Under the pieces are notes generated by a model. It did no database searches, was not told the origin of the DNA, and saw only the letters and a program-made list of their open reading frames with translations. A stretch of 43,922 bases of DNA from a virus (Duplodnaviria; Heunggongvirae; Uroviricota; Caudoviricetes): IMG/VR virus record IMGVR_UViG_3300045988_002593, positions 1 to 43,922 of that record. One strand, written 5' to 3'. Within the stretch, counting starts at the first letter, position 1. The number at the start of each line of letters is the position of its first letter. Below are positions 11,723 to 38,706 of the stretch, piece by piece. The translations under genes and the position numbers were made by a program.

Positions 11723-12224
11723 CTCACCTATTTACGCCACTCCGGGTGTTAAAGAGGTTGAAGTTCTCCGCGCTGCGTCGACAGTAGCGCAAGCGCCTAC
11801 CGCAGTAGATACGGCGTTGCAGGTATCGTTCGGCTCTGCTCAGGGTAGTGCATCTGACCCGGTAATGATTAATGCTGCGGGGCTGGTTACATTCAACACC
11901 GCGGGTAACTATGCCGTTCGCATCAAGTTACAGGCCGGTCGCTCCGGCGCTAGCGGAACGTCTATCCTGTTGTCGCGTATCCTCATTAACGGCGCTCAGT
12001 ACGGCTCACCAGCAGCTACGAAACTTGTTAGCTCGGAAACCACCATCCCTATTGAATCCCGTGTAGTGATTAACCCAACCGCCGGGCAAACATTCGCCGT
12101 TCAGATTATGCGAGATAGCGCCGGGACTAACTTCGGAGGCGTATACCCGCAGGTGGCTACTGTAACTGCATGGGGCACGGCACCGTCCGCGCTACTGGTT
12201 ATTTCGAGACTGGAGGCTGCCTGA
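11694..12224 (+). CDS. Putative head-tail joining / neck protein (downstream part of the split gene)
   Basis: ORF track; reading frame opens at 11631; an internal ATG at 11715 could reinitiate. Confidence 0.45.
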   Translation: MRGVLTQMADSPIYATPGVKEVEVLRAASTVAQAPTAVDTALQVSFGSAQGSASDPVMINAAGLVTFNTAGNYAVRIKLQAGRSGASGTSILLSRILINGAQYGSPAATKLVSSETTIPIESRVVINPTAGQTFAVQIMRDSAGTNFGGVYPQVATVTAWGTAPSALLVISRLEAA

Positions 12225-12583
12225 TGAGCACTGCTTTCAGTAAACGTATGCAAGGCGTGGGTACACGCCTGTTAACCAAATTCGGTAGCACGGTATCTCT
12301 GATTCGCGCTGGCTCGAAAGTGTGGGATGAAGTTCTCGGTGAGTACGTCTGGTCTGCGGATGAAGTGTTGCCGTTGAAGGCCGTTCCGGTTCCTGTTAAT
12401 GCGGGTCTGGTGAACGGTACGACGATTCAGGCTGGTGACATGATTGTTAAAGCCGATTACAGCGTCGTTCCTAAGATGGAAGACAAAGTGCAATTCGGCG
12501 GCGAGCAATGGTCCGTCGTAGCCATTGAGAAGAAGGTGGTTAACGATGATGTTGTGGCCTACTTTATTCAGGTGAGAAAATGA
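12224..12583 (+). CDS. Putative head closure / neck protein
   Basis: ATG overlaps the upstream stop (TGATG); within the head-tail joining cluster. Confidence 0.45.
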   Translation: MSTAFSKRMQGVGTRLLTKFGSTVSLIRAGSKVWDEVLGEYVWSADEVLPLKAVPVPVNAGLVNGTTIQAGDMIVKADYSVVPKMEDKVQFGGEQWSVVAIEKKVVNDDVVAYFIQVRK

Positions 12584-12975
12584 GTTTCGCGCTGGACGTC
12601 TCTAAGTTCGTGGAAAAGGCGAAGAAGAACCCTGAGAAGGTGATGCGTCAGGTGTCTATCAAGCTGTTTTCCGCTATTATAAAGGCGAGTCCGGTAGATA
12701 CTGGTCGGTTTCGCATGAACTGGATGGCATCTGGCGGTACTCCTGCTTCCGGGATTACGGATGCTACGGATAAATCAGGAAACACAGCAACCGGAAACGC
12801 TACAAGTTTCGTGCTGAAAGCCACCGACTGGCATGAGTTCACGCTGACAAATAACCTGCCGTATGCACAACGGCTGGAGTATGGCTGGTCGCAACAGGCC
12901 CCGCAAGGATTCGTCAGGACTAACGTGTCCCGCTTCCAGCAACTCATTAACGAAGAAGCTAGCAAGGTGAGATGA
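12580..12975 (+). CDS. Putative tail completion protein
   Basis: ORF track; overlapping start/stop; gene order. Confidence 0.45.
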   Translation: MSFALDVSKFVEKAKKNPEKVMRQVSIKLFSAIIKASPVDTGRFRMNWMASGGTPASGITDATDKSGNTATGNATSFVLKATDWHEFTLTNNLPYAQRLEYGWSQQAPQGFVRTNVSRFQQLINEEASKVR

Positions 12976-13388
12976 TGGGCTACTTTGAGGACTTAACAAA
13001 AGCGTTTGATGTGCCGCTGGTAGCCTTCGGAACCACCAACGGCATCAAGGTAGCGCTTGAAAACATCGACGCGCCGACGTCAACAGATACGCCGTATCTG
13101 GCAAGTTACATGTTGCTGGCGGATACCGAGCAGGCTGACTTATTCTTCACGGAACAACGCGCCGGTGTCTATCAGATAGACATTAACTACGCATCGGTGA
13201 AAGGTAGCGCGCCAATCAATAAAATGGCAGACTTACTTAACACGGCGTTTAAATCAGGTAAGGCATTTTCGCGTAACGACATCTGCGCCGAGGTTCAATC
13301 GGTTAGCCTGGGGCCGCTGATTGTAGAAAACGGATGGGCCAAACGACCATTGTCAATTAACTTTATTGCATTCACCAAGAGGCTGTGA
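12972..13388 (+). CDS. Putative tail terminator protein
   Basis: ORF track; immediately upstream of the putative major tail gene. Confidence 0.4.
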   Translation: MMGYFEDLTKAFDVPLVAFGTTNGIKVALENIDAPTSTDTPYLASYMLLADTEQADLFFTEQRAGVYQIDINYASVKGSAPINKMADLLNTAFKSGKAFSRNDICAEVQSVSLGPLIVENGWAKRPLSINFIAFTKRL

Positions 13389-13390
13389 AT

Positions 13391-14557
13391 ATGGCTACAA
13401 CTCCTTTTAAGGGCGCGAATACCGCGCAATTCTATGTGGCGGAAACTACCCCGGGCGTAACACCGGCTAACCCTGTCTGGTCGCCGTTGCGTAACACTGG
13501 CGGTGTTCCTGCCGTAACCCGCGATGCGCTGACTTCCAACGAACTAGACGGCAGCCGTGAAACTACATCCATCCGGACCGGTAACAAACAGGTTAGCGGG
13601 GAGTACGCCATCGAACTTAGCTCTCGTAGCCAGGATGATTTCCTTGCGGGAGCGATGACTTCTACGTGGCAAGCTGGGGTAGAGATTACTGGCGCCGAAA
13701 TTACGGTCGCCCCAGCAGGTAAAACATTCACCCGCGCTGCCGGTAGCTTCATTACTGACGGTGTAGAAGTTGGCGACCTTATTGCGTTCACCGACTTAAC
13801 CGGCGACAACGCAAAACCGTTTATCGTGACCGCGGTTTCCGCTCTGGTAGTTACGGGCGCAGGTATTCAGCACACGCTGACAGCAGAGACAGTAACCACT
13901 GACGCAAAAACTGGCGACAAGCTGGAAACCGGTAACGCGTGTAAGACGTTCTCCATCCTGACGTGGTTCAAGGGCCAGTGTGGTAACCCGGACGCGTACA
14001 TGCTGACCAAAGGTGTGGAAATCTCTGGCTTTACCGTAGAGCAGGCGGTTAACGCCATGGTCACCGGCAGCTTCCCGTTCATCGGCCTGAGTCAGGAGAT
14101 TCTTACCGCGCCGCCGTCTGGCTCTGATTTCTCTCAGGTTACGTTCACCGATGAGCCGTTCTCGTCGGTAGATGTGTCGGTGTTCGATGGCTCCACGCCG
14201 TTGCGTTGCGATACTCTCACCATCACCAACGACAACGGAGCTTCCGCGCAGTTCGAACTCGGTAACAGTAGCGTGGCGTTCGTCGAACGTGGACGCGCAG
14301 CTAACACATTCTCTATCTCTGGCAAGCTGTACGACATGGCGATGATTCAGAAGTTTATCAACGAGCAGCAGGTAGAGATTAACTCTATTCTGGCAGGGGT
14401 AAACGGGGCTATGTCTTTCAGTTTGAAACGTGCAGAGCTTACGGCGGTTACACCTGAGATTGGTGGGCCTGAGTCAATCACTCAGTCCATTGAAGGCCAG
14501 GCTACCGGCAATCAGTACCAGTCGTCTATCGTAATTCAACGTATCACCTACGCATAA
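13391..14557 (+). CDS. Putative major tail (tube) protein
   Basis: Largest ORF between the neck genes and the tail chaperones; followed by a strong terminator; start at ATG 13391 with an AGAGG RBS. Confidence 0.5.
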   Translation: MATTPFKGANTAQFYVAETTPGVTPANPVWSPLRNTGGVPAVTRDALTSNELDGSRETTSIRTGNKQVSGEYAIELSSRSQDDFLAGAMTSTWQAGVEITGAEITVAPAGKTFTRAAGSFITDGVEVGDLIAFTDLTGDNAKPFIVTAVSALVVTGAGIQHTLTAETVTTDAKTGDKLETGNACKTFSILTWFKGQCGNPDAYMLTKGVEISGFTVEQAVNAMVTGSFPFIGLSQEILTAPPSGSDFSQVTFTDEPFSSVDVSVFDGSTPLRCDTLTITNDNGASAQFELGNSSVAFVERGRAANTFSISGKLYDMAMIQKFINEQQVEINSILAGVNGAMSFSLKRAELTAVTPEIGGPESITQSIEGQATGNQYQSSIVIQRITYA

Positions 14558-14585: not shown

Positions 14586-15140
14586 TTACAAACCTAATTT
14601 TAAAGCAATGTCTATAACGTTCGATTTAACGTCACCCGGTATGATGTAGGTGTCGTAATCTTTTACACCACTAACATCGTACAGATAGCCACGGCTATCG
14701 CAGATGAACGTATAGCCGTCACGATGGAGGCGGACGATTCGCACGTCATGCCCCGCGGCGACGATAGGGGCAACTTCACTGGCGAATCCACCATCGGACA
14801 CTACAAAAACTTCGTCGCCGTCAGGCAAGTTTTCAGCAAGATACTTACCGAAATAATCATCGCCGAATACCGGTTTAATGAATTGCTCAGAAATGGCAAT
14901 CATTAACCGGCGGCGGGACAACCCATTAAGAAAACCCTCGGGTTTTTCTTTCCGCGCCCGGTCGTCGTAGCCGTCGAGAAATTCGTGGTAAGCATCCTGG
15001 CCTAACGCTGCCAAAGCAATATTGAACATTGGATTCTTGAAACTGGTAGTTCCTTTCGCAAAGCCCATTTCTACCAGCGCCATAGCAAGCGTGTCTTTCC
15101 CGCAACCCGCAGGGCCATTAAGAATAATTACCTTAGCCAT
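14586..15140 (-). CDS. P-loop kinase, deoxynucleoside-monophosphate-kinase-like
   Basis: Walker A GPAGCGKDT, an RRRLM motif and a VRIVRLHRDG segment that I recall from T4 gene 1 dNMP kinase (from memory, not searched). Confidence 0.55.
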   Translation of the reverse strand: MAKVIILNGPAGCGKDTLAMALVEMGFAKGTTSFKNPMFNIALAALGQDAYHEFLDGYDDRARKEKPEGFLNGLSRRRLMIAISEQFIKPVFGDDYFGKYLAENLPDGDEVFVVSDGGFASEVAPIVAAGHDVRIVRLHRDGYTFICDSRGYLYDVSGVKDYDTYIIPGDVKSNVIDIALKLGL

Positions 15141-15628
15141 TATTTATCGCTCCCGTGTGGTTTTAAGTGTGTAGAGTTCCCGTTACAGTCGTATTCGGTA
15201 ACTGCGTGTGCGGTTATGCCGAGGTAACGGAAATGCTTTATTACCGCTGGAGAGTCGTCGAACGCACACAAGATTCTTTCCAGTCCGAAAGCACGCAACA
15301 CCTCTTCTTTAATTACGATGTCTTTTCTGTTGTCGTGTTTGCTGCGCATGATTAGCGTGTCAAACCTAACGTTATTCTCTCGTAACCATTCGCGAGTCTC
15401 CTCCTCAGCGTCATCACTTCGCCCGGTAAGGATAATTATAGTAAGTCCGGAATGCCACAGTACGCTACACAAATGGATATTGTCGTATATCGGAGCGTCA
15501 TCTTTGCAGGCCATGTTAAATGGCTTCCACGCCCACGTTTCTCCGTAGTTATCTTTTGGTAACAGGTGTAAGCGATGGGTACCGTCGGCCAATGTCCCGT
15601 CTAAATCGAAAATTACAATATCTTTCAT
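15140..15628 (-). CDS. HAD-superfamily phosphatase
   Basis: HAD motifs FDLDGTL, ILTGR, RKDIVIKEE and FDDS; as I recall, resembles polynucleotide 3'-phosphatase or nucleotidase-type small HADs. Confidence 0.6.
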   Translation of the reverse strand: MKDIVIFDLDGTLADGTHRLHLLPKDNYGETWAWKPFNMACKDDAPIYDNIHLCSVLWHSGLTIIILTGRSDDAEEETREWLRENNVRFDTLIMRSKHDNRKDIVIKEEVLRAFGLERILCAFDDSPAVIKHFRYLGITAHAVTEYDCNGNSTHLKPHGSDK

Positions 15629-16755
15629 CCCAGCATCTCCGGTGAAATAGTTAAACGTGCGACCTCGCCATATTCGGCGCTATAAGTAATTACATTTGCA
15701 CTGCGGCCCGACATCCATCCGCCGCGAGAGGCGTAGGCGTCTTTAGCCGCTAAGGTGCGGTGTTGCTCAACAATCATGTTACGGCTTTCTACAATCTTCT
15801 GGTGGTGCAGATGGCCTACGTGGGCGTAGCTGTAAACACTCTCGCCGAACGCTTTACGGAACTTGGCAATCATAACCGGTTCGATAGCGTCGAATCGTGC
15901 TTTATGCCCGTGATGGAAGAACAGCGTCGTTTTGCCGTGTTGCACCATCTTGTAAACATCCGGCGACGTATCGACGAACACGCGCGGCTCATTGTCGTAC
16001 AGCGTACTGAACATCTCAGCCAACCAAATCATACCCGATTCGTCGTGATTCCCTTGCACGATAAGCAAGCGAACATTTTTATGCTTAACCAACGCCATAT
16101 CAACGACACGGCGGACCATACGAATCATGTAACGGACCAGTTTCTGATAGCGCGTGTCAGCGTCAAGGACATGACCGCTTGCGGGCGTAACGGCATCAAG
16201 ACTATCGAAGTGTGCGAAGTCCCCAAGCAGGTTAATAACCCCAGTACCGGCATCCGGTGCTTTCTGGAATGCTGCATCGAACCAACGAGAGAACAGGTCT
16301 TCCGCAATCTTCATGTCCCAGTCGTCGCCGCTCTCGTCGGCCCAGGCCAGCATACCGAGATGGAAATCGGATACAGTGTAAAGATTGAGCAGCTTATCGT
16401 CCCGTTTGGCACGAACGGCTTTAACAGGTGCAACGGGCGTAATCTCCGATTTCATGCCTTCGATCACGGCTTTCATCAATTCAACCTGACGTTCGGCGTC
16501 AGTGTCGGTCTTAACCCATTGCAACTTAGTGTTGCCGAACTCATCCACCAGTGACGACGTTCCTTTAATCTTATAGCCGTCCGGGACAAGGTGGCTAACA
16601 TCACGTCCGTGACCTACACCTTTCTTAGCCAGCTTCGCTTTACGGATACGAATTACGCGGTCTGAGATGCCGTATTTACGGGCGATGTCTACATTCTTCA
16701 TTCCGGCGTTCAATTCTTCCTGTAACTGTTCGTCGGTTATTTTCTTCCAGGCCAT
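15625..16755 (-). CDS. Calcineurin-like metallophosphoesterase with N-terminal HTH extension
   Basis: Motifs SDFHLG, GDFAHFD, GNHDE, HHGH and GHLHH in canonical order, SbcD/Mre11-like; N-terminal ~45 aa look like an HTH. Confidence 0.6.
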   Translation of the reverse strand: MAWKKITDEQLQEELNAGMKNVDIARKYGISDRVIRIRKAKLAKKGVGHGRDVSHLVPDGYKIKGTSSLVDEFGNTKLQWVKTDTDAERQVELMKAVIEGMKSEITPVAPVKAVRAKRDDKLLNLYTVSDFHLGMLAWADESGDDWDMKIAEDLFSRWFDAAFQKAPDAGTGVINLLGDFAHFDSLDAVTPASGHVLDADTRYQKLVRYMIRMVRRVVDMALVKHKNVRLLIVQGNHDESGMIWLAEMFSTLYDNEPRVFVDTSPDVYKMVQHGKTTLFFHHGHKARFDAIEPVMIAKFRKAFGESVYSYAHVGHLHHQKIVESRNMIVEQHRTLAAKDAYASRGGWMSGRSANVITYSAEYGEVARLTISPEMLG

Positions 16756-16793
16756 GCTTACTTCCTCGTGTTTAGGATTTGTCTTATAGTAGC

Positions 16794-16985
16794 CTACTTC
16801 TCTTTCACGTTCGAGTTACAAGCCCAGATTAAAATGAATACCCACGGCAACAGAACCCACCCGAGAAATAAGTTAGCCATGAATATCGCTAGCTTTGCTT
16901 TATGGTTTCGCATATGGGCCACAAAAAACGGGATAAAATAAACGCCTACAACAATAATTAAAAAGAACATAGCGATACCGGTCAT
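16794..16985 (-). CDS. Small membrane protein (63 aa)
   Basis: Two hydrophobic helices; start moved to the ATG at 16985 with an AGGAG RBS 7 nt upstream; first gene after the cassette promoter. Confidence 0.5.
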   Translation of the reverse strand: MTGIAMFFLIIVVGVYFIPFFVAHMRNHKAKLAIFMANLFLGWVLLPWVFILIWACNSNVKEK

Positions 16986-17027
16986 AACATAACTCCTGAT
17001 TTGAGATAACATCGTTGGTGTAAGTGA

Positions 17028-17056
17028 ATAGTACGCTATTATATCAGGGTGTGCAA
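17028..17056 (-). promoter_or_regulatory. Promoter, TTGCAC-17-TACTATTCA class, for the minus-strand cassette
   Basis: Minus-strand -35 TTGCAC (17051-17056), 17-bp spacer containing TATAAT, -10 TACTAT (17028-17033). Confidence 0.5.
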
Positions 17057-17163
17057 GTAGTATGTTAGAATAATTTTGCGCCTAGTGTCGCACACGAAAA
17101 GCGGGTGGTTCCCGTCTGGCGCATTTCCTTTAACCAGTAACCTCTTAACCAAAGGATTAAAGA

Positions 17164-17580
17164 ATGAAACTTTCTGATTTTTATTACGAAGCTGAAGCTG
17201 AAAAGGGTGCACGTATGCCGATACCATTAAAAGACGGTACCGATTCCGGGGAATGGCTTAATGTTGTTTCTCCTGAGGCAGACGTTGCCGTTAAGGCTAT
17301 GCGCGCGTTCACCCTTGCATACCGGGCAGTGTTAGGGAAATTAAAACCGCTTCGTGATAAGTGCGAAGAGATGAAAGATTTCTCTGAATACAACCTGAAG
17401 ATGGAAGACGCGGCGACGGACCTTAACCGTCAGTTAGCGGTTGAATTGGTTAACGGGTGGAGCCTTGACGACGAATTCAATAAAGAGAATCTGAACACAC
17501 TCCTGACGCAATATAAACGACTCGCGGAACTTGTTGTTGTGTTTCATAACGAACAACTGCACCAGCTACAGGAAAAGTAG
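17164..17580 (+). CDS. Tail assembly chaperone (G-like)
   Basis: Directly upstream of the tape measure gene; followed by a -1-frame ORF. Confidence 0.55.
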   Translation: MKLSDFYYEAEAEKGARMPIPLKDGTDSGEWLNVVSPEADVAVKAMRAFTLAYRAVLGKLKPLRDKCEEMKDFSEYNLKMEDAATDLNRQLAVELVNGWSLDDEFNKENLNTLLTQYKRLAELVVVFHNEQLHQLQEK

Positions 17581-17585
17581 ACGCG

Positions 17586-17945
17586 TTGCTCCAGTTCGCC
17601 CGTTGGAACTTCATAACCCGCCACAAACGGCGGGAATTTGACAGTATCGCCGATGGGCATAAAGCCGCGCTAATTGCTATGGGGGTTATGCAAGACGCGC
17701 CGGACGCAACGCAGGCCACTGGGCCGGAATGCCCCCCTGAACTACTAACCACATTTGAGAAGTACAGGGAAATTAAATTCACCCGCCGAGTGGACGACGA
17801 CGGCATCAAGATGTACCCGCGCGAGCAATTACGATGGTCAGATTTAGTGGCGTACAGCACCGTTTCAGGCCAGAATATAGGGATGTTCGAATCTGACATC
17901 ATCATGAGCTTAGACGCTATTTTCGAGGGTAGAAACGATGGCTGA
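17586..17945 (+). CDS. Tail assembly chaperone frameshift extension (T-like), probably made as a G-T fusion
   Basis: Open in the -1 frame from 17550; candidate slip site GGAAAAG at 17571-17577 just before the G stop; overlaps the tape measure start. Confidence 0.45.
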   Translation: MLQFARWNFITRHKRREFDSIADGHKAALIAMGVMQDAPDATQATGPECPPELLTTFEKYREIKFTRRVDDDGIKMYPREQLRWSDLVAYSTVSGQNIGMFESDIIMSLDAIFEGRNDG

Positions 17946-20277
17946 TGTAGCTAGTTTAGTCGTAAAAGTATCAGAGCAAGGCGCGAAAGCCACATCAGAC
18001 CGTCTTGATAATCTTTCAAAGTCCGCAAAAGTAGCGGGGGCCGCCGTAGCAGGCCTCGCTTCTATCGTAGCGGCTACCGCGTATAAAGCCGCCCAAGAAC
18101 TAGTTGACTCACAGCGGCAACTGGACAAGATGTCCGCCAGTTTGAAGACCTTAACCGGAAGTACCCAAGGTGCTAAACAGGCGCTAAGTATCCTGCAAGA
18201 TTTTGCACGCGACACCCCATACGGACTGGAGCAGGCGGTGGAAGGCTTCCGTAAGCTGGTGGCCCTTGGCCTTACCCCATCCGAGGAGGCGTTGCGGTCC
18301 TACGGCAATACCGCATCGGCTATGGGTAAGGACCTTAATCAGATGATTGAGGCGGTAGCCGACGCCAGTACGTTTGAGTTCGAACGCCTCAAAGAATTCG
18401 GCATCAAAGCCAAGCAGAACAAAACCGACGTAGAGTTTACGTTCCAGGGAACGACAACCGTAGTTAAGAAAAGCGCTGCCGATATTGAGCAGTATTTACT
18501 TAACATTGGTAACGTAAATTTTGCGGGGGCTATGGCGGACCAGGCCAACACCCTTAACGGCGCTATCGCGAGTGCCAGTGACTCATGGTCGCAGCTAAAA
18601 ATGACGCTTGCCACCAGTCTTGATGTTGGCGCACTTGCTGAACCTATCAGGTATATCGATGACTTGATTCAGGAATTAAACGCGTCTGTTGCTTCCGGTG
18701 AATTAGCCGCTGAAATGCAGATGTGGGGGAACATCGCGTCGGAAGTAGGAAGCGCTATCGAGATGTCATTCGACGCTGCGTTTGGCTTTGTTGGCGATGC
18801 CATCAACGGGCTTAATGAACTGTGGGATTTCAGCAGCAAGAGTATTACGGATAGCGGAGAACAAACGGCTACTACCATCGCTGAATCCGCCGCCGATGCG
18901 CTTGACTTCATCGCGGAAGAGTTCACCGCGATGGAGAGATTCTTTGAAGATATGGTTAAAGGCGCGCAGGACGCGGGCCGTCTTGTACGAGCCGCTTTTA
19001 CCCCCGGGGAATCAGTAGACGTAGCTAAAAATATCAACTTCCAGCTTGGCCTGGCTTTGGATACCCAGCGCGATGTCACCGACGTTACGCGTAAAAGTTT
19101 CCGCGAACAGGTAGAAGCTCAACAGGATATTGTAGCGTTAAAACGCGCGGCGTATGACATCGATAAGGAGTCCGCAAAAGCTGAGGGGTTAAACAAATTT
19201 AAGGTAACCGGAACTGGCGGCGGTTCTGACGATGACGGGTCAGCCGCAAAAGCCGCTAAGAAAGCGGCGGACGCGTTCGAGCGCCAGAAAAAAGCGGCGG
19301 AAGACTTCTACTATCAGTCAATCCATCTTAATGATGACGTATTTCAGAAAATAGAAGCTAACCAGGAAGAGCAACTGTCTAAGTTGCAGGACTTCTATAG
19401 CAATAAGCTTCTTAGCGACCAACAGTACGAAAACGCCAAGACGCAGATTATGTTATCCGCGGAACAGGCCCGCCAGGAAGAACTGGATAAGAAAAGGAAG
19501 GAGGCCCAGGAGAATCAGCAGAAAGGCGAGGATTTCATGGCTCAGATTATGGGTCAGAACGCCACCGAGCTTGAGCTTCTGGATATTCAGGAACAGCAGA
19601 AACTGGCAGTAGCCGATAAGTACCGTGAACAGGGTCTTATTAGCGAGAAGCAGTATCAGGCCGCGCTTAACGCCATCAACGAGCAGTACGCCACGAAGCG
19701 TGCCGACGCAACGGCAACGGCCTTCGGTAACATGGCCTCAAACATCGGTTCGGCTTTGGGCGAGGCTTCTGGCGCGTACAAGGCATTCGCTATCGTGCAG
19801 GCCACTATAGCCACGTACACCGCGGCTATTGAGGCGTATAAGTCAACAGCGGCTATCCCTGTAGTTGGCCCGTTCCTGGCTCCTGTAGCTGCCGCTGCTG
19901 CCGTTGGGGCGGGTATGGCGCAGATTTCCGCTATCAGGTCCGCACGTGAACAGGGCGGACAGTTATCCGCGGGGCAGGCTTCAACCATCGCCGAACGCGG
20001 TAAACCAGAAGTTATCATGCCCGCTGGTGCGTCACGTGTACGCACCGCACAGCAGATGAAAGAAATTATGGGGCAAAACGGGTCTTCTTCCGGCCCATCT
20101 AATGTTACTATCGTAAATAACACGAGTTCTCAAATAGGCAACGTATCCACTGAGCAAGATGATGAAGGCCGTTTGCGTATCATCATCGAGGAGCAAGTGG
20201 CTGCCTCTTTGCAGAACAGTAACAGTAAGATTAGCAAGGCCCGCAAGGCCACAAGAAATGCGCCGGGGTTCAAATAA
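17938..20277 (+). CDS. Tail tape measure protein
   Basis: 779-aa Ala/Gln/Glu-rich helical protein following the chaperone pair. Confidence 0.8.
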   Translation: MADVASLVVKVSEQGAKATSDRLDNLSKSAKVAGAAVAGLASIVAATAYKAAQELVDSQRQLDKMSASLKTLTGSTQGAKQALSILQDFARDTPYGLEQAVEGFRKLVALGLTPSEEALRSYGNTASAMGKDLNQMIEAVADASTFEFERLKEFGIKAKQNKTDVEFTFQGTTTVVKKSAADIEQYLLNIGNVNFAGAMADQANTLNGAIASASDSWSQLKMTLATSLDVGALAEPIRYIDDLIQELNASVASGELAAEMQMWGNIASEVGSAIEMSFDAAFGFVGDAINGLNELWDFSSKSITDSGEQTATTIAESAADALDFIAEEFTAMERFFEDMVKGAQDAGRLVRAAFTPGESVDVAKNINFQLGLALDTQRDVTDVTRKSFREQVEAQQDIVALKRAAYDIDKESAKAEGLNKFKVTGTGGGSDDDGSAAKAAKKAADAFERQKKAAEDFYYQSIHLNDDVFQKIEANQEEQLSKLQDFYSNKLLSDQQYENAKTQIMLSAEQARQEELDKKRKEAQENQQKGEDFMAQIMGQNATELELLDIQEQQKLAVADKYREQGLISEKQYQAALNAINEQYATKRADATATAFGNMASNIGSALGEASGAYKAFAIVQATIATYTAAIEAYKSTAAIPVVGPFLAPVAAAAAVGAGMAQISAIRSAREQGGQLSAGQASTIAERGKPEVIMPAGASRVRTAQQMKEIMGQNGSSSGPSNVTIVNNTSSQIGNVSTEQDDEGRLRIIIEEQVAASLQNSNSKISKARKATRNAPGFK

Positions 20278-29957: not shown

Positions 29958-30085
29958 TCCAGCACCCACAAATAAATTGCTACTAGCATACCCAATACGG
30001 CGACCATCATGCCGTATTGACCCTCGTGACAGTAGACACCAGCGGCGAATCCCGCCAGCACCGCGATACTTAGTTTACTTGGCAT
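29954..30085 (-). CDS. Hypothetical membrane peptide (43 aa)
   Basis: Hydrophobic ORF whose ATG overlaps the last codons of the polymerase gene; stop overlaps the next ATG. Confidence 0.35.
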   Translation of the reverse strand: MPSKLSIAVLAGFAAGVYCHEGQYGMMVAVLGMLVAIYLWVLE

Positions 30086-32246
30086 AACGCTTCATCTCCG
30101 CGCCTTCCGCTACAAGAGGGAAGCCCTCTGCCCACTCTGGCAACGCACACATTAATTTCTCCAGTTCAGCTACGTTGTATTCCGGCGTATCTGGAGTTTC
30201 ACATACCAGTTCATCGTGTACATGAAGTACAATAGGGTAGCCGTTTGCTTCTACGTTCAGCAGTGCATTAGCCAGCAAATCACGGCACAGCGCCTGCGTA
30301 CAGTTTTCCACGAGTTTACCGGAATATGTGTACTGGAACCCCCACTGTCGGGTTAGCTGATTTTCGCCCTGGTACTTGATGCGCACGTTAGTAGACACCT
30401 TCCCGTCTTCGTCTGTCTCTTTTGATACGCTTAACCCGACGCCTGGATAAGACATAACACGACCCGACGGCAGCGTCATACGCAACCACCAACCAGCGAC
30501 TTTGTTGCCGTTGTTATCTGTCTCTACGTTACGCGAAAACTTAACCCCGCGCGGCCCTGCGGTGAACTCTTTACCCGGATTGCGGATAGCCGCCATAGCT
30601 GCATCTTCAATATCGCGCCAGAATTGGACTATTGCTGGGTTAGCTTCCCGGTACATGCGCTTTAAAGCGTCACAGGTGCGCCAAACTTTCTTATCAAGAA
30701 TATATGATGGTCGGTCATCTTTTTCACCAGGACGTGGCGGTCGCTTGGCTTCCTGAATACGCGCCCATTCATATCCTCGTGCGGTAGCGGCCCAGATATG
30801 GTCAGGGAAAGTCCCGTCTAAAGTACGGGCCATATCGTTCAAATCAAGCCCTAAGTTTTTAGCAAACGTGACGAAAGCCCCTACACCCCCCGCGTAACCC
30901 AGTCCGAGAACCATTGCTTTGGCTATTTGTCTTTGGTCCTTTGTTACGTCGTCATAACTAACGTTGAACACGGTTGATGCGAGTTTCTTATACACATCAA
31001 CCCCGTTTACAAATACTTCTATTAAATCGTCTTCGCCAGCCAGCCACGCCAAACCACGGCCTTCAACGTTAGAGTAATCGGCTACGACAAACTTATGCCC
31101 TGCTTCCGGGATAATACAGCTACGAACCGTCGACGCCGTTAGCTTGGCTACGTCGAAACGGCGATGCGCACGACCCTTAAGTAGCGCTGAAATGCCCTTA
31201 TCCAGTTCATCATCGTGATAGTACCCGCGCGCCAGGTTCTGTGGTTGGAAGCCTTTACCTGCGAACCGTAACGTACGCTTGGCCCCACCGTACTGGATGC
31301 AACCACGGCGGCGGTCGTCCGACGAGCGACCCAACAGCAGCGGGTTATATTTCGTTGACGCAGTGGACGCGGCCCCGAGGCGCATTTCTATAATTGTGCG
31401 GGCGTCGTCGGGTAAATCCTCATCCGCCAGCAGGTCGTTAAGCGTTGACTTCTGCGCGTTGTGGATACGGTGCGCTGGCGCAAGTTCACGCAGAATCGGC
31501 AGGAAGTCCTTACCAGTAAGAGAGCCACCGTATTTTCGTTGGGCTTCTTCCTGTAACTGCGCCTTGTGCTTCTCCACGGCTTCAATCGCGGCTTCTGCCA
31601 GTGCAACGTCAACCTTAAACCCGCGGTCATTTATTAACTGGTCAAGTTCCAGTACACGGTCTTCGAACTCGGAGTTACCCCAACGTGGCAGCTTATGGAA
31701 GACTTCACGCATCGCGGTGATGTCGCTCACGGCGTACTTGATGAACAGCGCCCACTCGTCCGGGTGTGTTTCTGCGGTATAGCGTCTGATTTTGTAGTTC
31801 TTCGGTGTCGGTTTAGAGAAACGCTGAATCAGCGCCTTGCCGCGTTTATCTTTCGCGTTGTCGGCGGATACGCCCAACACTTCGCACAAGGCATCCAGTG
31901 AACCTGGCAGCGCGTGACGAAACGCCCAAATCATCGTATCAATGGTGTTGCTTACGGGAATATCAAAACCCCAGCAGTGCTTCATGATGAGCCTATCGAA
32001 CATTGAGCCGTTGTGCCACACCATCTTGGTGCGGCTGTTTGGCTTAACCAGGCGGCGCAAGGCGCGGTGCAAATCTCCCGGCATGTCGCTGCCGTCGGTG
32101 CAATCCCATACCTGTACAGGCTCGTCATCAAAGGCATATGTGCAGATTAGCACTTCGGTTGACGGGTGTTCGGCGTAAGCGTAGGAGCCGACTTTCTTTA
32201 AATCGGCTTCGGAGAATGTTTCAAAGTCTAAGAACAGGTAACTCAT
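30075..32246 (-). CDS. DNA polymerase, family A, with 3'-5' exonuclease domain
   Basis: Exo I motif LFLDFETFS; polymerase motif A DYSNVEGR, motif B K...YG (KAMVLGLGYAGG), motif C HVHDE. Confidence 0.9.
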   Translation of the reverse strand: MSYLFLDFETFSEADLKKVGSYAYAEHPSTEVLICTYAFDDEPVQVWDCTDGSDMPGDLHRALRRLVKPNSRTKMVWHNGSMFDRLIMKHCWGFDIPVSNTIDTMIWAFRHALPGSLDALCEVLGVSADNAKDKRGKALIQRFSKPTPKNYKIRRYTAETHPDEWALFIKYAVSDITAMREVFHKLPRWGNSEFEDRVLELDQLINDRGFKVDVALAEAAIEAVEKHKAQLQEEAQRKYGGSLTGKDFLPILRELAPAHRIHNAQKSTLNDLLADEDLPDDARTIIEMRLGAASTASTKYNPLLLGRSSDDRRRGCIQYGGAKRTLRFAGKGFQPQNLARGYYHDDELDKGISALLKGRAHRRFDVAKLTASTVRSCIIPEAGHKFVVADYSNVEGRGLAWLAGEDDLIEVFVNGVDVYKKLASTVFNVSYDDVTKDQRQIAKAMVLGLGYAGGVGAFVTFAKNLGLDLNDMARTLDGTFPDHIWAATARGYEWARIQEAKRPPRPGEKDDRPSYILDKKVWRTCDALKRMYREANPAIVQFWRDIEDAAMAAIRNPGKEFTAGPRGVKFSRNVETDNNGNKVAGWWLRMTLPSGRVMSYPGVGLSVSKETDEDGKVSTNVRIKYQGENQLTRQWGFQYTYSGKLVENCTQALCRDLLANALLNVEANGYPIVLHVHDELVCETPDTPEYNVAELEKLMCALPEWAEGFPLVAEGAEMKRYAK

Positions 32247-36144: not shown

Positions 36145-36457
36145 ATAGCAACTTATCGAGTTCTTCCAAATTCTTAATAGTGTGTTGCACGTTCAGGTAC
36201 TGAATCCAGGCGAGAAACCACGCACTTACAGGAAAACTTATAACAATAGTTATCGATATAATTAATTTGAAAAGGCACTTTATAATCTCTGCCAGCGTCA
36301 TGTCTAAAATGTCTTTAAACTCCGCAAAAATCCCCGCTGCATACACACAAAAAGTCCACCAGTTGTTGCTTACAGCGGAAACACATGTCAGGTATGACGG
36401 GCGGTATCCTGCCTTCACTGCTTTAAACGGGTTATCTATAAAATCGTAAATATTCAT
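36143..36457 (-). CDS. Hypothetical membrane protein
   Basis: Two hydrophobic helices; start overlaps the primase stop. Confidence 0.5.
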   Translation of the reverse strand: MNIYDFIDNPFKAVKAGYRPSYLTCVSAVSNNWWTFCVYAAGIFAEFKDILDMTLAEIIKCLFKLIISITIVISFPVSAWFLAWIQYLNVQHTIKNLEELDKLL

Positions 36458-38706
36458 TCCAAATCCTCCTCGGTCACTGTCAGCATTTCATTCGGTTCGT
36501 ATATTGTCTTCGGAATCTTGTTATCTGTTATCATGGTGTTCAGTCTGTAACGGCCTGGGATTATCTGATTGTTTTCGTCAGTACCCGGAACAAGATACCC
36601 AGCCTCAACCATTTTCTTAATCTTCCCGCGTTCTATGGCTTCTTTGGAGTTAAACGCCTTTGCGTTGGGGTCAGACTGCGCGAGCTTATTCGCTGCGGAT
36701 ACCGTGATGCCCTCGTTGCCGTTGTAGGTCCCCTCCGCCAGTTCAAACGCCGCGAGTATCGTGGCCTCGGAACTGTTGACGGCGTTCTCTATGGTTTTAC
36801 GTACATTTTGTTTACCTTCGTTAGTTAACCCTTCTTCCCTCTCTTTCTCCTCGTCGGTCTTGAATGGCTCGAAGCCCCACGGCATCAATACAAGCGCCTT
36901 GTGCGGCTCAGGCAGGTCGAGGTTTACTATTGTGCCGTATTCCTCTGTGCTACCGAGGAACTCAACCGCGCGGTACTCTTTCGGCGGCGGTGCTTCACGG
37001 AACTGTACAGACTCCAGTACCATGCCAACCGTCTTCTGTTGAGGACCGTGCTTAAATTTAGAGTGGTATACGTTTATCTGACGGTCGGTAGCGCGTTCGA
37101 TTGTCAGTTCCACGTCGACACCCGCATACAATGCTCCACTGCCGCGGGCTTTCTTTCCGCCCTTCGGAGTATGGTGAACGACACCGACAGCGGCTTTAGT
37201 TGCATCGCGCACTTCTTTCAGGATGGCGATAACTTTACCCATACCGATTGCCGTTGATGAACTGTTCTCGTCGAACTTATCAATCGTCAGGGCCAGCGTC
37301 TGGTTAAGGGTGTCGAAGGCAACCATGCCAATAGGTTCATCCCCTGCGGTTTCGCGCATCCTGCGGATTAGAGCTGGAATTTTTTTATCACCATGCGTAG
37401 CGAGTATTTCGCCCATATCGATGACATGTACATAATCTTTACCTTCCTCGCCATATTTAGCCGCGAGTGCATCAATACGTGTTCGTGTAGCTGCACCACC
37501 CTCGCCGTCAATATAGAAATGGTGGCAACGTTGGGTGTCAGCCCCCGCAAACCGGTACCCGGCGGCGCTCAGGTACATCATCCCCAGCGTATAGAATGAT
37601 TTGTACGTGCCGGATTCCCCGACAATATCCCAGATACAATCCGACGGCATGTACCCCTCAACGACGAAATCAGCCTTTACCGGTTCTGGTAACTCGTCCT
37701 CTTCTTCAAGGTCTTCCAGCGTGCAAGTTACAGGCTCCTCGTTCTCTGTGCGGTGCAGTTCTTCAATCTCTTCATCCGGTAAATCAGGCAGAGCCGCACG
37801 AATGCTGTTAATACTGATAGGTTGCTTGTCTACGTTAAGCTCGTCTGGCAGGCCGCACATACGCAGGGCCAAATGCTGTCGGCGGTTAAGCTCGGTGCAA
37901 GCGCCGTTGTTTGTATGCTGGCACACAAAGCGCACTTCTTTACCATCAAGCATGATGCTTGTGGAGCCTTTGCCTGTATGCAGATGTTCGTTAGGGCATG
38001 GGACTTCGTACCCGCGCCCGGAAGATAAAGCGTCAAGGCCAAGCTCGGCTTCGCAGAAATGCGCTATATCAGCGTTAAGCCCATACTCATCGGCGGCAAG
38101 TGTCTTAACTTCACGTTTACTCAACCCCATCTCTTCGGCTTTCTTGATGTACCGCTCGGCACGGATAACACGCCCTTCTGTAACCGTTATCTTCGACTCT
38201 TTGTGCGGCAGGTAGATAAGGCGGTTGCCATCTTCCGTGCAGTGGTCGCGCAACGCTTCGTCTATTTCTAACTCTGCACAAATAGCCCGTTGCACCATCC
38301 ACGCATCGTTAGAGTTAAACGGAGTGCGAGCCGGAACCAGAACGCGGAATGCGTAATCCCCGTTTTTACACGCATGCTGATGCGATGCCGTTGTGTGCAG
38401 AATATTGAAGAACGGTGCGTTCTTGAATTTGCGGGTAAGGTCGCGGTACTGAGTACGGTTGAGATGGTCAAAATCGAACTTAACCACACTGTCTTCCAGG
38501 ATAGCGTTTTTACGGCGACCCCCAACAGGCGCAATAGCTTTCTGCTTAATCTTGGCAGCGTCGTACTCTTCCTTAGACCACGACGGATCCACGGATAAAC
38601 GCTTCGATGTATCGCAGACATACTCCACAAACTGCTCGAGCGGCATCTCACGCGCTACAGGGTTTTTATCGAATGTGTTGCGCAGCGTTGCAAAAACAAT
38701 ATTCAT
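36454..38706 (-). CDS. DNA primase-helicase (N-terminal primase-like domain with zinc motif, C-terminal RecA-like ATPase)
   Basis: Zinc-binding CPNEHLH...C...C; Walker A GESGTYKS; motifs VAFDTLNQ and VVHHTPKGG. Confidence 0.75.
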   Translation of the reverse strand: MNIVFATLRNTFDKNPVAREMPLEQFVEYVCDTSKRLSVDPSWSKEEYDAAKIKQKAIAPVGGRRKNAILEDSVVKFDFDHLNRTQYRDLTRKFKNAPFFNILHTTASHQHACKNGDYAFRVLVPARTPFNSNDAWMVQRAICAELEIDEALRDHCTEDGNRLIYLPHKESKITVTEGRVIRAERYIKKAEEMGLSKREVKTLAADEYGLNADIAHFCEAELGLDALSSGRGYEVPCPNEHLHTGKGSTSIMLDGKEVRFVCQHTNNGACTELNRRQHLALRMCGLPDELNVDKQPISINSIRAALPDLPDEEIEELHRTENEEPVTCTLEDLEEEDELPEPVKADFVVEGYMPSDCIWDIVGESGTYKSFYTLGMMYLSAAGYRFAGADTQRCHHFYIDGEGGAATRTRIDALAAKYGEEGKDYVHVIDMGEILATHGDKKIPALIRRMRETAGDEPIGMVAFDTLNQTLALTIDKFDENSSSTAIGMGKVIAILKEVRDATKAAVGVVHHTPKGGKKARGSGALYAGVDVELTIERATDRQINVYHSKFKHGPQQKTVGMVLESVQFREAPPPKEYRAVEFLGSTEEYGTIVNLDLPEPHKALVLMPWGFEPFKTDEEKEREEGLTNEGKQNVRKTIENAVNSSEATILAAFELAEGTYNGNEGITVSAANKLAQSDPNAKAFNSKEAIERGKIKKMVEAGYLVPGTDENNQIIPGRYRLNTMITDNKIPKTIYEPNEMLTVTEEDLE

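Follow-up and report, generated by a model that had tools for sequence, protein, structure and literature searches.

The window analyzed here is a viral DNA stretch of 43,922 nucleotides (nt), the IMG/VR record IMGVR_UViG_3300045988_002593 at its full length. Two overlapping reading frames located in it directly upstream of the tape measure gene very probably constitute a G/GT tail assembly chaperone cassette of a Kagunavirus siphophage, in which the longer product, GT, would be made by a −1 frameshift at the heptamer G_GAA_AAG. For the Guernseyvirinae-like phages as a group, the chances seem about even that the frameshift is driven by a composite signal undescribed for tail chaperones, namely, NNA_AAG, a directly following stop codon that is obligatory, and a long-range RNA helix; the 5′ arm of the helix would be fixed 5–6 nt past the slip site, and its 3′ partner would have been switched in evolution (~115 or ~185 nt away, within the coding sequence of the frameshift product).

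According to the sequence and the list of open reading frames (ORFs), gene G (17164–17580, plus strand, 138 amino acids (aa)) ends with CAG GAA AAG TAG. The −1 frame is closed by TAA at 17547–17549; from 17550 on, it runs without a stop as far as the TGA at 17943–17945 (131 codons), and its end overlaps the tape measure gene, which starts with ATG at 17938, by 8 nt (ATGGCTGA). Both ORFs had been delimited in this way in the original prediction, which was made from the sequence alone. The open −1 frame overlaps gene G by 28 nt, and G_GAA_AAG is the sole slippery element, as well as the sole in-frame A_AAG, in this overlap. The heptamer departs from the X_XXY_YYZ form, as was likewise pointed out initially, since the re-pairing of GAA to GGA takes a G.U pair at the middle position. 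At the same time, GAA_AAG (17572–17577) fits the form NNA_AAG, in which the preceding codon ends in A and tRNA-Lys decodes AAG. The predicted GT fusion contains 260 aa (29.8 kDa), and the G protein alone is acidic, with a computed isoelectric point of 4.9.

The window belongs to the genus Kagunavirus (Guernseyvirinae). Its region 17100–18000 shares 98.3% identity with the E. coli phage Golestan; at the DNA level, matches to this region occur in 288 phage records. Gene G matches the Pfam family Phage_TAC_4 (9e-8, 32.8 bits against the curated cut-off of 21.1), and the −1 ORF matches Phage_TAC_18 (2e-18, 66.7 bits against the curated cut-off of 27). In addition, the 259 positions of the profile phrog_15027 (“tail assembly chaperone”) are shared between the two ORFs, with G corresponding to positions 1–138 and the −1 ORF to positions 136–259. 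Since one profile covers both ORFs, fused versions are already present in phage databases. A PDB sequence search and an NCBIfam search with the fusion protein gave nothing significant.

The frameshift is indeed already known at the database level for Kagunavirus, and it is inconsistently annotated. In Golestan (the nearest genome in RefSeq), fEg-Eco06, KMB36, and SE2, the two ORFs are annotated as separate genes, the second coding sequence (CDS) starting from the TTG that corresponds to TTG 17586 of the window; in SETP3, fmb-p1, and SE1, the second CDS is annotated from starts located still later. A joined CDS was deposited for K1H (2010; ORF19A/19B) and for fFiEco03, where it is labelled “frameshift product”. 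The fusions constructed in the present analysis, with the slip at the heptamer and the junction ...EK|V..., are residue-identical to the deposited proteins ADA82316.1 (K1H) and QNO11663.1 (fFiEco03). The fusion sequence of the window itself is absent from the protein collection searched.

The separate-gene annotations imply that the second ORF is translated from its own start, TTG 17586, either de novo through AGGA at 17570–17573 or by reinitiation after TAG, and yields a free protein of 119 aa. This is considered very unlikely, even though Golestan, fEg-Eco06, KMB36, and many other relatives are annotated so, the TTG lies 5 nt past the stop codon, and a GGA-rich stretch is present upstream. 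Most of the family has CTG in place of this TTG; in those lineages, the first ATG, GTG, or TTG of the T frame is found 29–323 nt past the G stop, and a start there would delete invariant residues. In the K1H-type phages, gene callers yield just an 87-aa remnant ORF. The alignment of the fusion is gap-free across the junction among sequence classes with 43–57% identity, and three residues behind the slip never vary, namely, V at position +1, A at +3, and L at +4, so that a conserved V-x-A precedes this Leu in the −1 frame. The spacing between AGGA and TTG is 12 nt, and a separate start leaves the strict conservation of NNA_AAG and of the G at heptamer position 1 unexplained. Because the start is missing in most lineages, the fusion aligns without gaps, and V, A, and L do not vary, independent initiation cannot be the mechanism of the family; judging from these comparisons, TTG 17586 is probably a mere internal Leu codon of GT. 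The family assignments, the −1 frame without a start in most lineages, the gap-free fusion, and the deposited fusions thus support the G/GT chaperone arrangement that had been put forward at the outset.

The comparison of the slip site across related phages, which had been proposed as a check, was performed using two IMG/VR scans and selected GenBank records. As a result, 110 loci with 74 distinct junctions were obtained, which were grouped into 20 clusters with an 80% identity threshold for the fused protein; the lowest identity to the window was 43%, in both domains. A_AAG is present in all 74 distinct junctions, and GGAAAAG directly followed by a stop codon is present in 60 of them. The stop (TAG or TAA) abuts A_AAG in 19 of the 20 clusters and lies one codon later in the remaining cluster. 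The terminal Lys codon of G is always AAG, versus 39–45% of Lys codons family-wide, and the codon 5′ of it always ends in A (GAA in 12 clusters, GCA in 6; GGA, AAA, and TCA as single cases). In several relatives, the −1 frame opens just 16 nt before the G stop, and A_AAG is the sole invariant element there. The original prediction had regarded the exact position of the slip as uncertain because of the imperfect heptamer; the imperfection is real, and the uncertainty as to position can be settled by these 16-nt overlaps. Given the family matches of both ORFs and the recurrence of GGAAAAG-stop and A_AAG, the two-frame layout is not a matter of chance. The family-wide form of the predicted slip site is NNA_AAG.

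Two canonical variants were found among the relatives. The Raoultella phage RP180 (NC_048181; loci L027 and L104) carries G_GGA_AAG, which is the heptamer of lambda. The change is a single A-to-G substitution that replaces the penultimate residue of G, Glu, with Gly and leaves the −1 frame unaltered; RP180 can be regarded as a natural experiment in slip-site strength. A_AAA_AAG was identified in two metagenomic relatives (L079 and L082). G_GGA_AAG is highly shift-prone, and NNA_AAG is used by IS1222 (PMC5009743). One more canonical heptamer, A_AAG_GGT, is present in frame early in gene G of the window (17202–17208; GCT GAA AAG GGT), where a −1 slip would lead to the −1 stop at 17259 and thus to a truncated product. 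The residues encoded there are not conserved beyond the clade of the window and SE2, and this heptamer is probably incidental.

The conservation around A_AAG also bears on the number of tRNAs involved. All GAA lineages have G immediately 5′ of GAA, and this G occurs within seven different codons (CAG, TCG, CTG, TTG, ATG, GCG, and AAG). In the GCA and TCA lineages, where the upstream tRNA is unable to re-pair anyway, the base is A, C, or G. This pattern would be expected from selection for slippage of tRNA-Lys from AAG to AAA, aided where possible by P-site re-pairing of GAA to GGA, and it is consistent with the shift-prone character published for A_AAG (PMC4066793) and for the NNA_AAG and G_GGA_AAG sites (PMC5009743). 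A “shifty stop” with a single tRNA, in which, following normal translocation, the P-site peptidyl-tRNA-Lys moves from AAG to AAA while a slow stop codon occupies the A site, Val-tRNA then reads GTA, and tRNA-Glu is uninvolved, seems rather unlikely as the full account. In its favor, the invariant core of the site is exactly A_AAG plus the stop, seven clusters have GCA or TCA and make P-site re-pairing impossible in the tandem model, and shifting on the NNA_AAG hexanucleotide is documented (PMC5009743). Under a pure P-site slip, however, base 1 of the heptamer should vary freely, and it always permits re-pairing where this is possible (GAA, GGA, and AAA), across the seven preceding codons. The tandem and single-tRNA modes may coexist.

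An origin of the layout in RNA polymerase slippage on the A run, or in a sequencing or assembly indel within a single GT gene, is extremely improbable. The window does contain a run of four A (17573–17576), but the same two-frame layout recurs in more than 70 independent assemblies and isolates. In addition, the runs known for transcriptional slippage are much longer than A4, or than the A3 present in GCA_AAG lineages.

Several points weigh against the frameshift and should be set beside the evidence above. In the clade of the window, some termination–reinitiation at the nearby TTG is possible. The tetramer A_AAG, the most shift-prone in E. coli, barely exceeds the background when there is no stimulator (PMC4066793). 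The Shashou announcement reports “no canonical slippery sequence” between the chaperone and tape measure genes (PMC6776780). A literature search found no fusion peptide or reporter assay for the phage of the window or any of the Guernseyvirinae. Searches for GGAAAAG with frameshift and phage, or for Kagunavirus with frameshift, returned no papers, and the paper on the Jerseyvirus GF04 mentions frameshifts solely as host mutations.

Downstream of the slip site, an invariant block GCG YTG (GCG CTG; GCG TTG in the window, 17583–17588) starts 5–6 nt past the heptamer. The third positions of these codons never vary, whereas those of other invariant residues do. Folding of 140 nt followed by a duplex scan (75 sequences; columns are counted from the first base of the heptamer) identified the block as the 5′ arm of a long-range helix that has two alternative 3′ partners, ~115 nt or ~185 nt downstream. 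In type A, the 3′ arm occupies columns ~131–144; this type is found in the window, SE2-like Jerseyviruses, K1ind3/RP180-like phages, and five metagenomic lineages. The window duplex is GCGUUGC-UCC x GGA-c-GCAACGC (−17.3 kcal/mol), and the bulged base 17705 is the sole varying arm position (C, T, or A) in its clade. SE2 forms GCGUUGUUUC x GAAACAACGC, with two compensatory changes relative to the window. In type B, found in K1H, SE1, SETP3, fmb-p1, and many metagenomic lineages, the 3′ arm occupies columns 204–217 and the helix is a perfect duplex of 11–13 base pairs (bp), GCGCUGUAUGAA x UUCAUACAGCGC (−14 to −23 kcal/mol), with coupled changes of UAU/AUA to UAC/GUA and to CAU/AUG.

The two types are mutually exclusive: exactly one strong duplex is present in 75 of the 75 sequences, and the other site gives just −4 to −12 kcal/mol. 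RNAalifold applied to each type recovered each helix unaided. Of all alignment cells in the arms, 99.1% are paired in type A (16 sequences) and 95.5% in type B, versus 15–55% when the arms are slid by 1–3 columns; compensatory cells number 12 in type A (at two pairs) and 7 in type B. The 16 G.U pairs against a single A.C indicate that the constraint acts on the sense RNA. When the codons of the 3′ region were redrawn with the amino acids kept, the observed duplex exceeded the mean strength of the recoded ones in each of the 21 lineages (per-lineage p 0.0025–0.37). The arm codons GCG, CTG, ATA, CAG, and CGC are fixed, their family usage being 28%, 27%, 28%, 68%, and 34%, respectively. In the window, the minimum free energy (MFE) fold of 17578–17720 (−55.9 kcal/mol, z = −2.6) has the stem closing a domain that contains two inner hairpins, the arms also emerge from an independent inverted-repeat search, and the spacer of 5 nt (17578–17582) matches classical −1 stimulators. 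On these comparative grounds, the helix is probably a 3′ frameshift stimulator.

It is somewhat unlikely, though it deserves consideration, that the long-range complementarity is not a stimulator and represents a by-product of conserved codons or serves another RNA role (mRNA stability or control of downstream translation). Some of the data speak for this and count against a stimulator. The type-B complementarity partly follows from the conserved peptide motifs ALYE and FIQR encoded by its two arms, and the recoded sequences still average −10 to −15 kcal/mol. In the window alone, the statistics are modest, equally good values being reached by 13 of 300 dinucleotide shuffles and by 10 of 400 synonymous recodings. 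Relatedness among the lineages means that the shuffle statistics exaggerate their independence, and the helix was discovered on the same sequences that were used to evaluate it. The inner structure is not conserved: RNAalifold found no well-conserved inner helices in type A and one inner helix in type B (columns 43–47 x 68–72) without compensatory change. Finally, no G/GT precedent was found in the literature, and an alternative role for the helix could be conceived. On the other side stand the synonymous sites fixed in the arm codons and the compensatory changes, which include non-synonymous ones, in both arms (UAU/AUA to CAU/AUG and UAC/GUA). Likewise, the strict alternation of the two partner sites and the replacement of the 3′ partner, while the 5′ arm stayed 5–6 nt from the slip site, at the canonical spacing of a stimulator, argue for the stimulatory role.

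Two IMG/VR metagenomic relatives (L090 and L095) encode a T protein of the type-B kind (motif LKFIRRET). Examination of columns 130–143 and 205–216 showed that their type-B arm is decayed (UUCAUACGACGC, −8.5 kcal/mol or weaker) and that a type-A arm is present (−15.3 kcal/mol). In sequence, they look like an intermediate in the switch of the helix partner. The T region of the window contains further perfect inverted repeats, namely, 17612–17619/17683–17690 (CATAACCC/GGGTTATG) and 17628–17634/17782–17788 (CGGCGGG/CCCGCCG), and the arm 17782–17788 reaches the position of the 3′ arm of the type-B relatives. These two repeats could give alternative or pseudoknotted pairings with the predicted domain.

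Other structures were tried and rejected. A search for a local hairpin or pseudoknot 5–9 nt downstream with RNAalifold, covering the first 107 nt in 10 and then 40 sequences, revealed none (−5.5 and −0.6 kcal/mol); the 107-nt stretch was too short and excluded the true partner. The pairing 17579–17587 x 17663–17671 was 92.5% paired in 10 sequences; with 40 sequences, the figure fell to 85%, compared with 83% for shuffles, and 19 of the 40 lacked pair 12/99. This pairing is explained by the palindromic GCGC of Ala-Leu/Ala-Ala codons. The hairpin CCCGCC-ACAAAC-GGCGGG (17617–17634) is specific to the window and is not conserved beyond its clade. A Shine-Dalgarno-like stimulator 9–14 nt 5′ of the site is neither visible nor conserved in the compared junctions. 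The Rfam search gave no relevant family, just one sub-threshold snoRNA match, and no literature was found on a long-range stimulator in tail chaperone frameshifts.

Conservation thus points to three strictly kept parts of the putative signal: the A_AAG core, the adjacent stop, and the helix 5 nt past the heptamer. In the proposed mechanism, most ribosomes would terminate at TAG and release G, an acidic chaperone. We infer that a minority would slip by −1 on G_GAA_AAG as the front of the ribosome encounters the long-range stem. In the tandem, two-tRNA mode, peptidyl-tRNA-Glu would re-pair from GAA to GGA with a middle G.U pair, and tRNA-Lys would move from AAG to its cognate AAA. GTA 17577 would be read next, giving GT. 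The helix would close a folded domain of ~130 nt; zero-frame ribosomes would halt at its foot, so that the downstream region would rarely be translated and the structure could persist. Possible roles of the adjacent stop are an added pause, a limit on how long G becomes, and protection of the helix. By analogy with lambda, the expected partner of G is the tape measure protein, which it would bind, and T would serve to recruit the tail tube protein (PMC5009743); neither chaperone would be present in the virion. The coordinates of these and neighboring features are given in Table 1.

Table 1. Features of the G/GT cassette and neighboring tail genes (positions in the window).
Feature	Position	Strand	Basis
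Gene G, short tail assembly chaperone	17164..17580	+	Standard decoding; ORF list, Phage_TAC_4, phrog_15027 1-138, phrog_313
Predicted slip site G_GAA_AAG, near-cognate heptamer, core A_AAG	17571..17577	+	Sequence, conservation
Zero-frame stop TAG, abuts the slip site, within the 5-nt spacer before the helix	17578..17580	+	Sequence, conservation
T domain, −1 extension, 122 codons from GTA 17577, stop TGA 17943-17945	17577..17945	+	Phage_TAC_18, phrog_15027 136-259, fusion alignment
Predicted GT fusion	join(17164..17577,17577..17945)	+	
TTG, CDS start in many relatives; would give 119 aa	17586..17588	+	GenBank/RefSeq annotation
Predicted helix 5′ arm (GCGTTGCTCC), begins 5 nt past the heptamer	17583..17592	+	Conservation, MFE fold, inverted repeat, RNAalifold, pair counts
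Predicted helix 3′ arm GGA-c-GCAACGC, type A, 7+3 bp, bulged base 17705	17702..17712	+	Duplex energy, pair counts
Tape measure protein gene, 779 aa	17938..20277	+	phrog_1538 3.9e-205, ORF list
Tail tube (major tail) protein gene	13385..14557	+	Phage_tube_2 4.5e-38
Tail terminator gene	12972-13388	+	

The tape measure gene lies directly 3′ of the two chaperone ORFs, and the nearest plus-strand structural gene 5′ of G is that of the tail tube protein. The gene order is kept, but adjacency is not: the tail tube gene and G are split by a minus-strand cassette of four genes (14586–17012, 2.4 kb) encoding dNMP kinase, polynucleotide kinase, metallophosphoesterase/“DNA repair exonuclease”, and a superinfection immunity protein. 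G is the first gene past the divergent intergenic region 17013–17163; a scan for sigma-70 promoters over 16700–18100 found none. The annotated start of the superinfection immunity gene (16794–17012, minus strand) varies among phages, with lengths of 192 nt in Golestan, 330 nt in fFiEco03, and 180 nt in SE2 and SETP3, and the longest ORF in the window is 72 aa. Further upstream, the ORFs 12170–12583 (head closure-like) and 12580–12975 (tail completion-like) match one PHROG (phrog_17193, positions 1–119 and 120–250). They overlap by ATGA, the second being in the −1 frame of the first, with the junction GAG AAA ATG A. Ordinary translational coupling, together with fused annotations elsewhere, is the probable explanation of this pair. 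Among the large ORFs on the minus strand of the window are 30075–32246 and 36454–38706. An intein in the helicase of a related Kagunavirus is described in the Shashou announcement (PMC6776780).

The predicted frameshift is an ordinary case within a class that is well known, and specialists would not find it surprising; what is new here is the resolved slip site together with a testable long-range candidate stimulator that shows partner switching. As for annotation, two-gene records with the doubtful TTG start should carry features of the type join(17164..17577,17577..17945). In addition, the relatives provide a natural series of slip sites (G_GAA_AAG, G_GGA_AAG, A_AAA_AAG, N_GCA_AAG, and G_TCA_AAG), all with a stop and the same anchored helix. 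The family could serve as a compact E. coli system for the contributions of near-cognate P-site re-pairing, the adjacent stop, and the long-range stem.

The G/GT frameshift of lambda and the conserved arrangement in long-tailed phages were described by Levin, Hendrix & Casjens (1993) and Xu, Hendrix & Duda (2004), as summarised in PMC5009743. As in lambda, the window contains overlapping ORFs before the tape measure gene, the second one in the −1 frame without its own start. G is likewise acidic with a length of ~140 aa, the slip would involve tRNA-Lys on A_AAG, and the related phage RP180 has the exact lambda heptamer. The window differs from lambda in the heptamer G_GAA_AAG with its P-site G.U pair, in the stop abutting the site, in the non-adjacent tail tube gene behind the minus-strand cassette, in the conserved long-range helix 5 nt downstream, and in the assignment of G and T to other Pfam TAC families. 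To our knowledge, no structured stimulator is recognised for lambda G/GT. The closest counterparts are K1H (ADA82316.1) and fFiEco03/fPoEco01 (QNO11663.1), which share the genus, gene pair, heptamer, and junction; their fusions differ in being database annotations for which no published experimental support was found.

Sites of the NNA_AAG form are represented by IS1222 (G_CGA_AAG) and Bacillus cdd (A_CGA_AAG) (Licznar et al. 2003, as cited in PMC5009743). The family shares the invariant NNA_AAG with them, and its GCA_AAG and TCA_AAG lineages would allow re-pairing of tRNA-Lys alone. In the window, by contrast, the upstream G would let tRNA-Glu re-pair too, which places its site between the hexamer and the canonical heptamer. 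As regards the helix, the stimulator of IS911 is a three-way junction 3′ of A_AAA_AAG (PMC5009743). The predicted structure recalls it as a stem located a few nt past the slip site that, in the MFE fold of the window, closes a larger branched domain, and it resembles the long-distance stimulators of luteoviruses and dianthoviruses in having a partner far from the slip site. Unlike these systems, the family of the window has distances of 115–185 nt, all of them spanned within the coding sequence for the frameshift product; an upstream Shine-Dalgarno element was not observed, and the 3′ partner differs by lineage.

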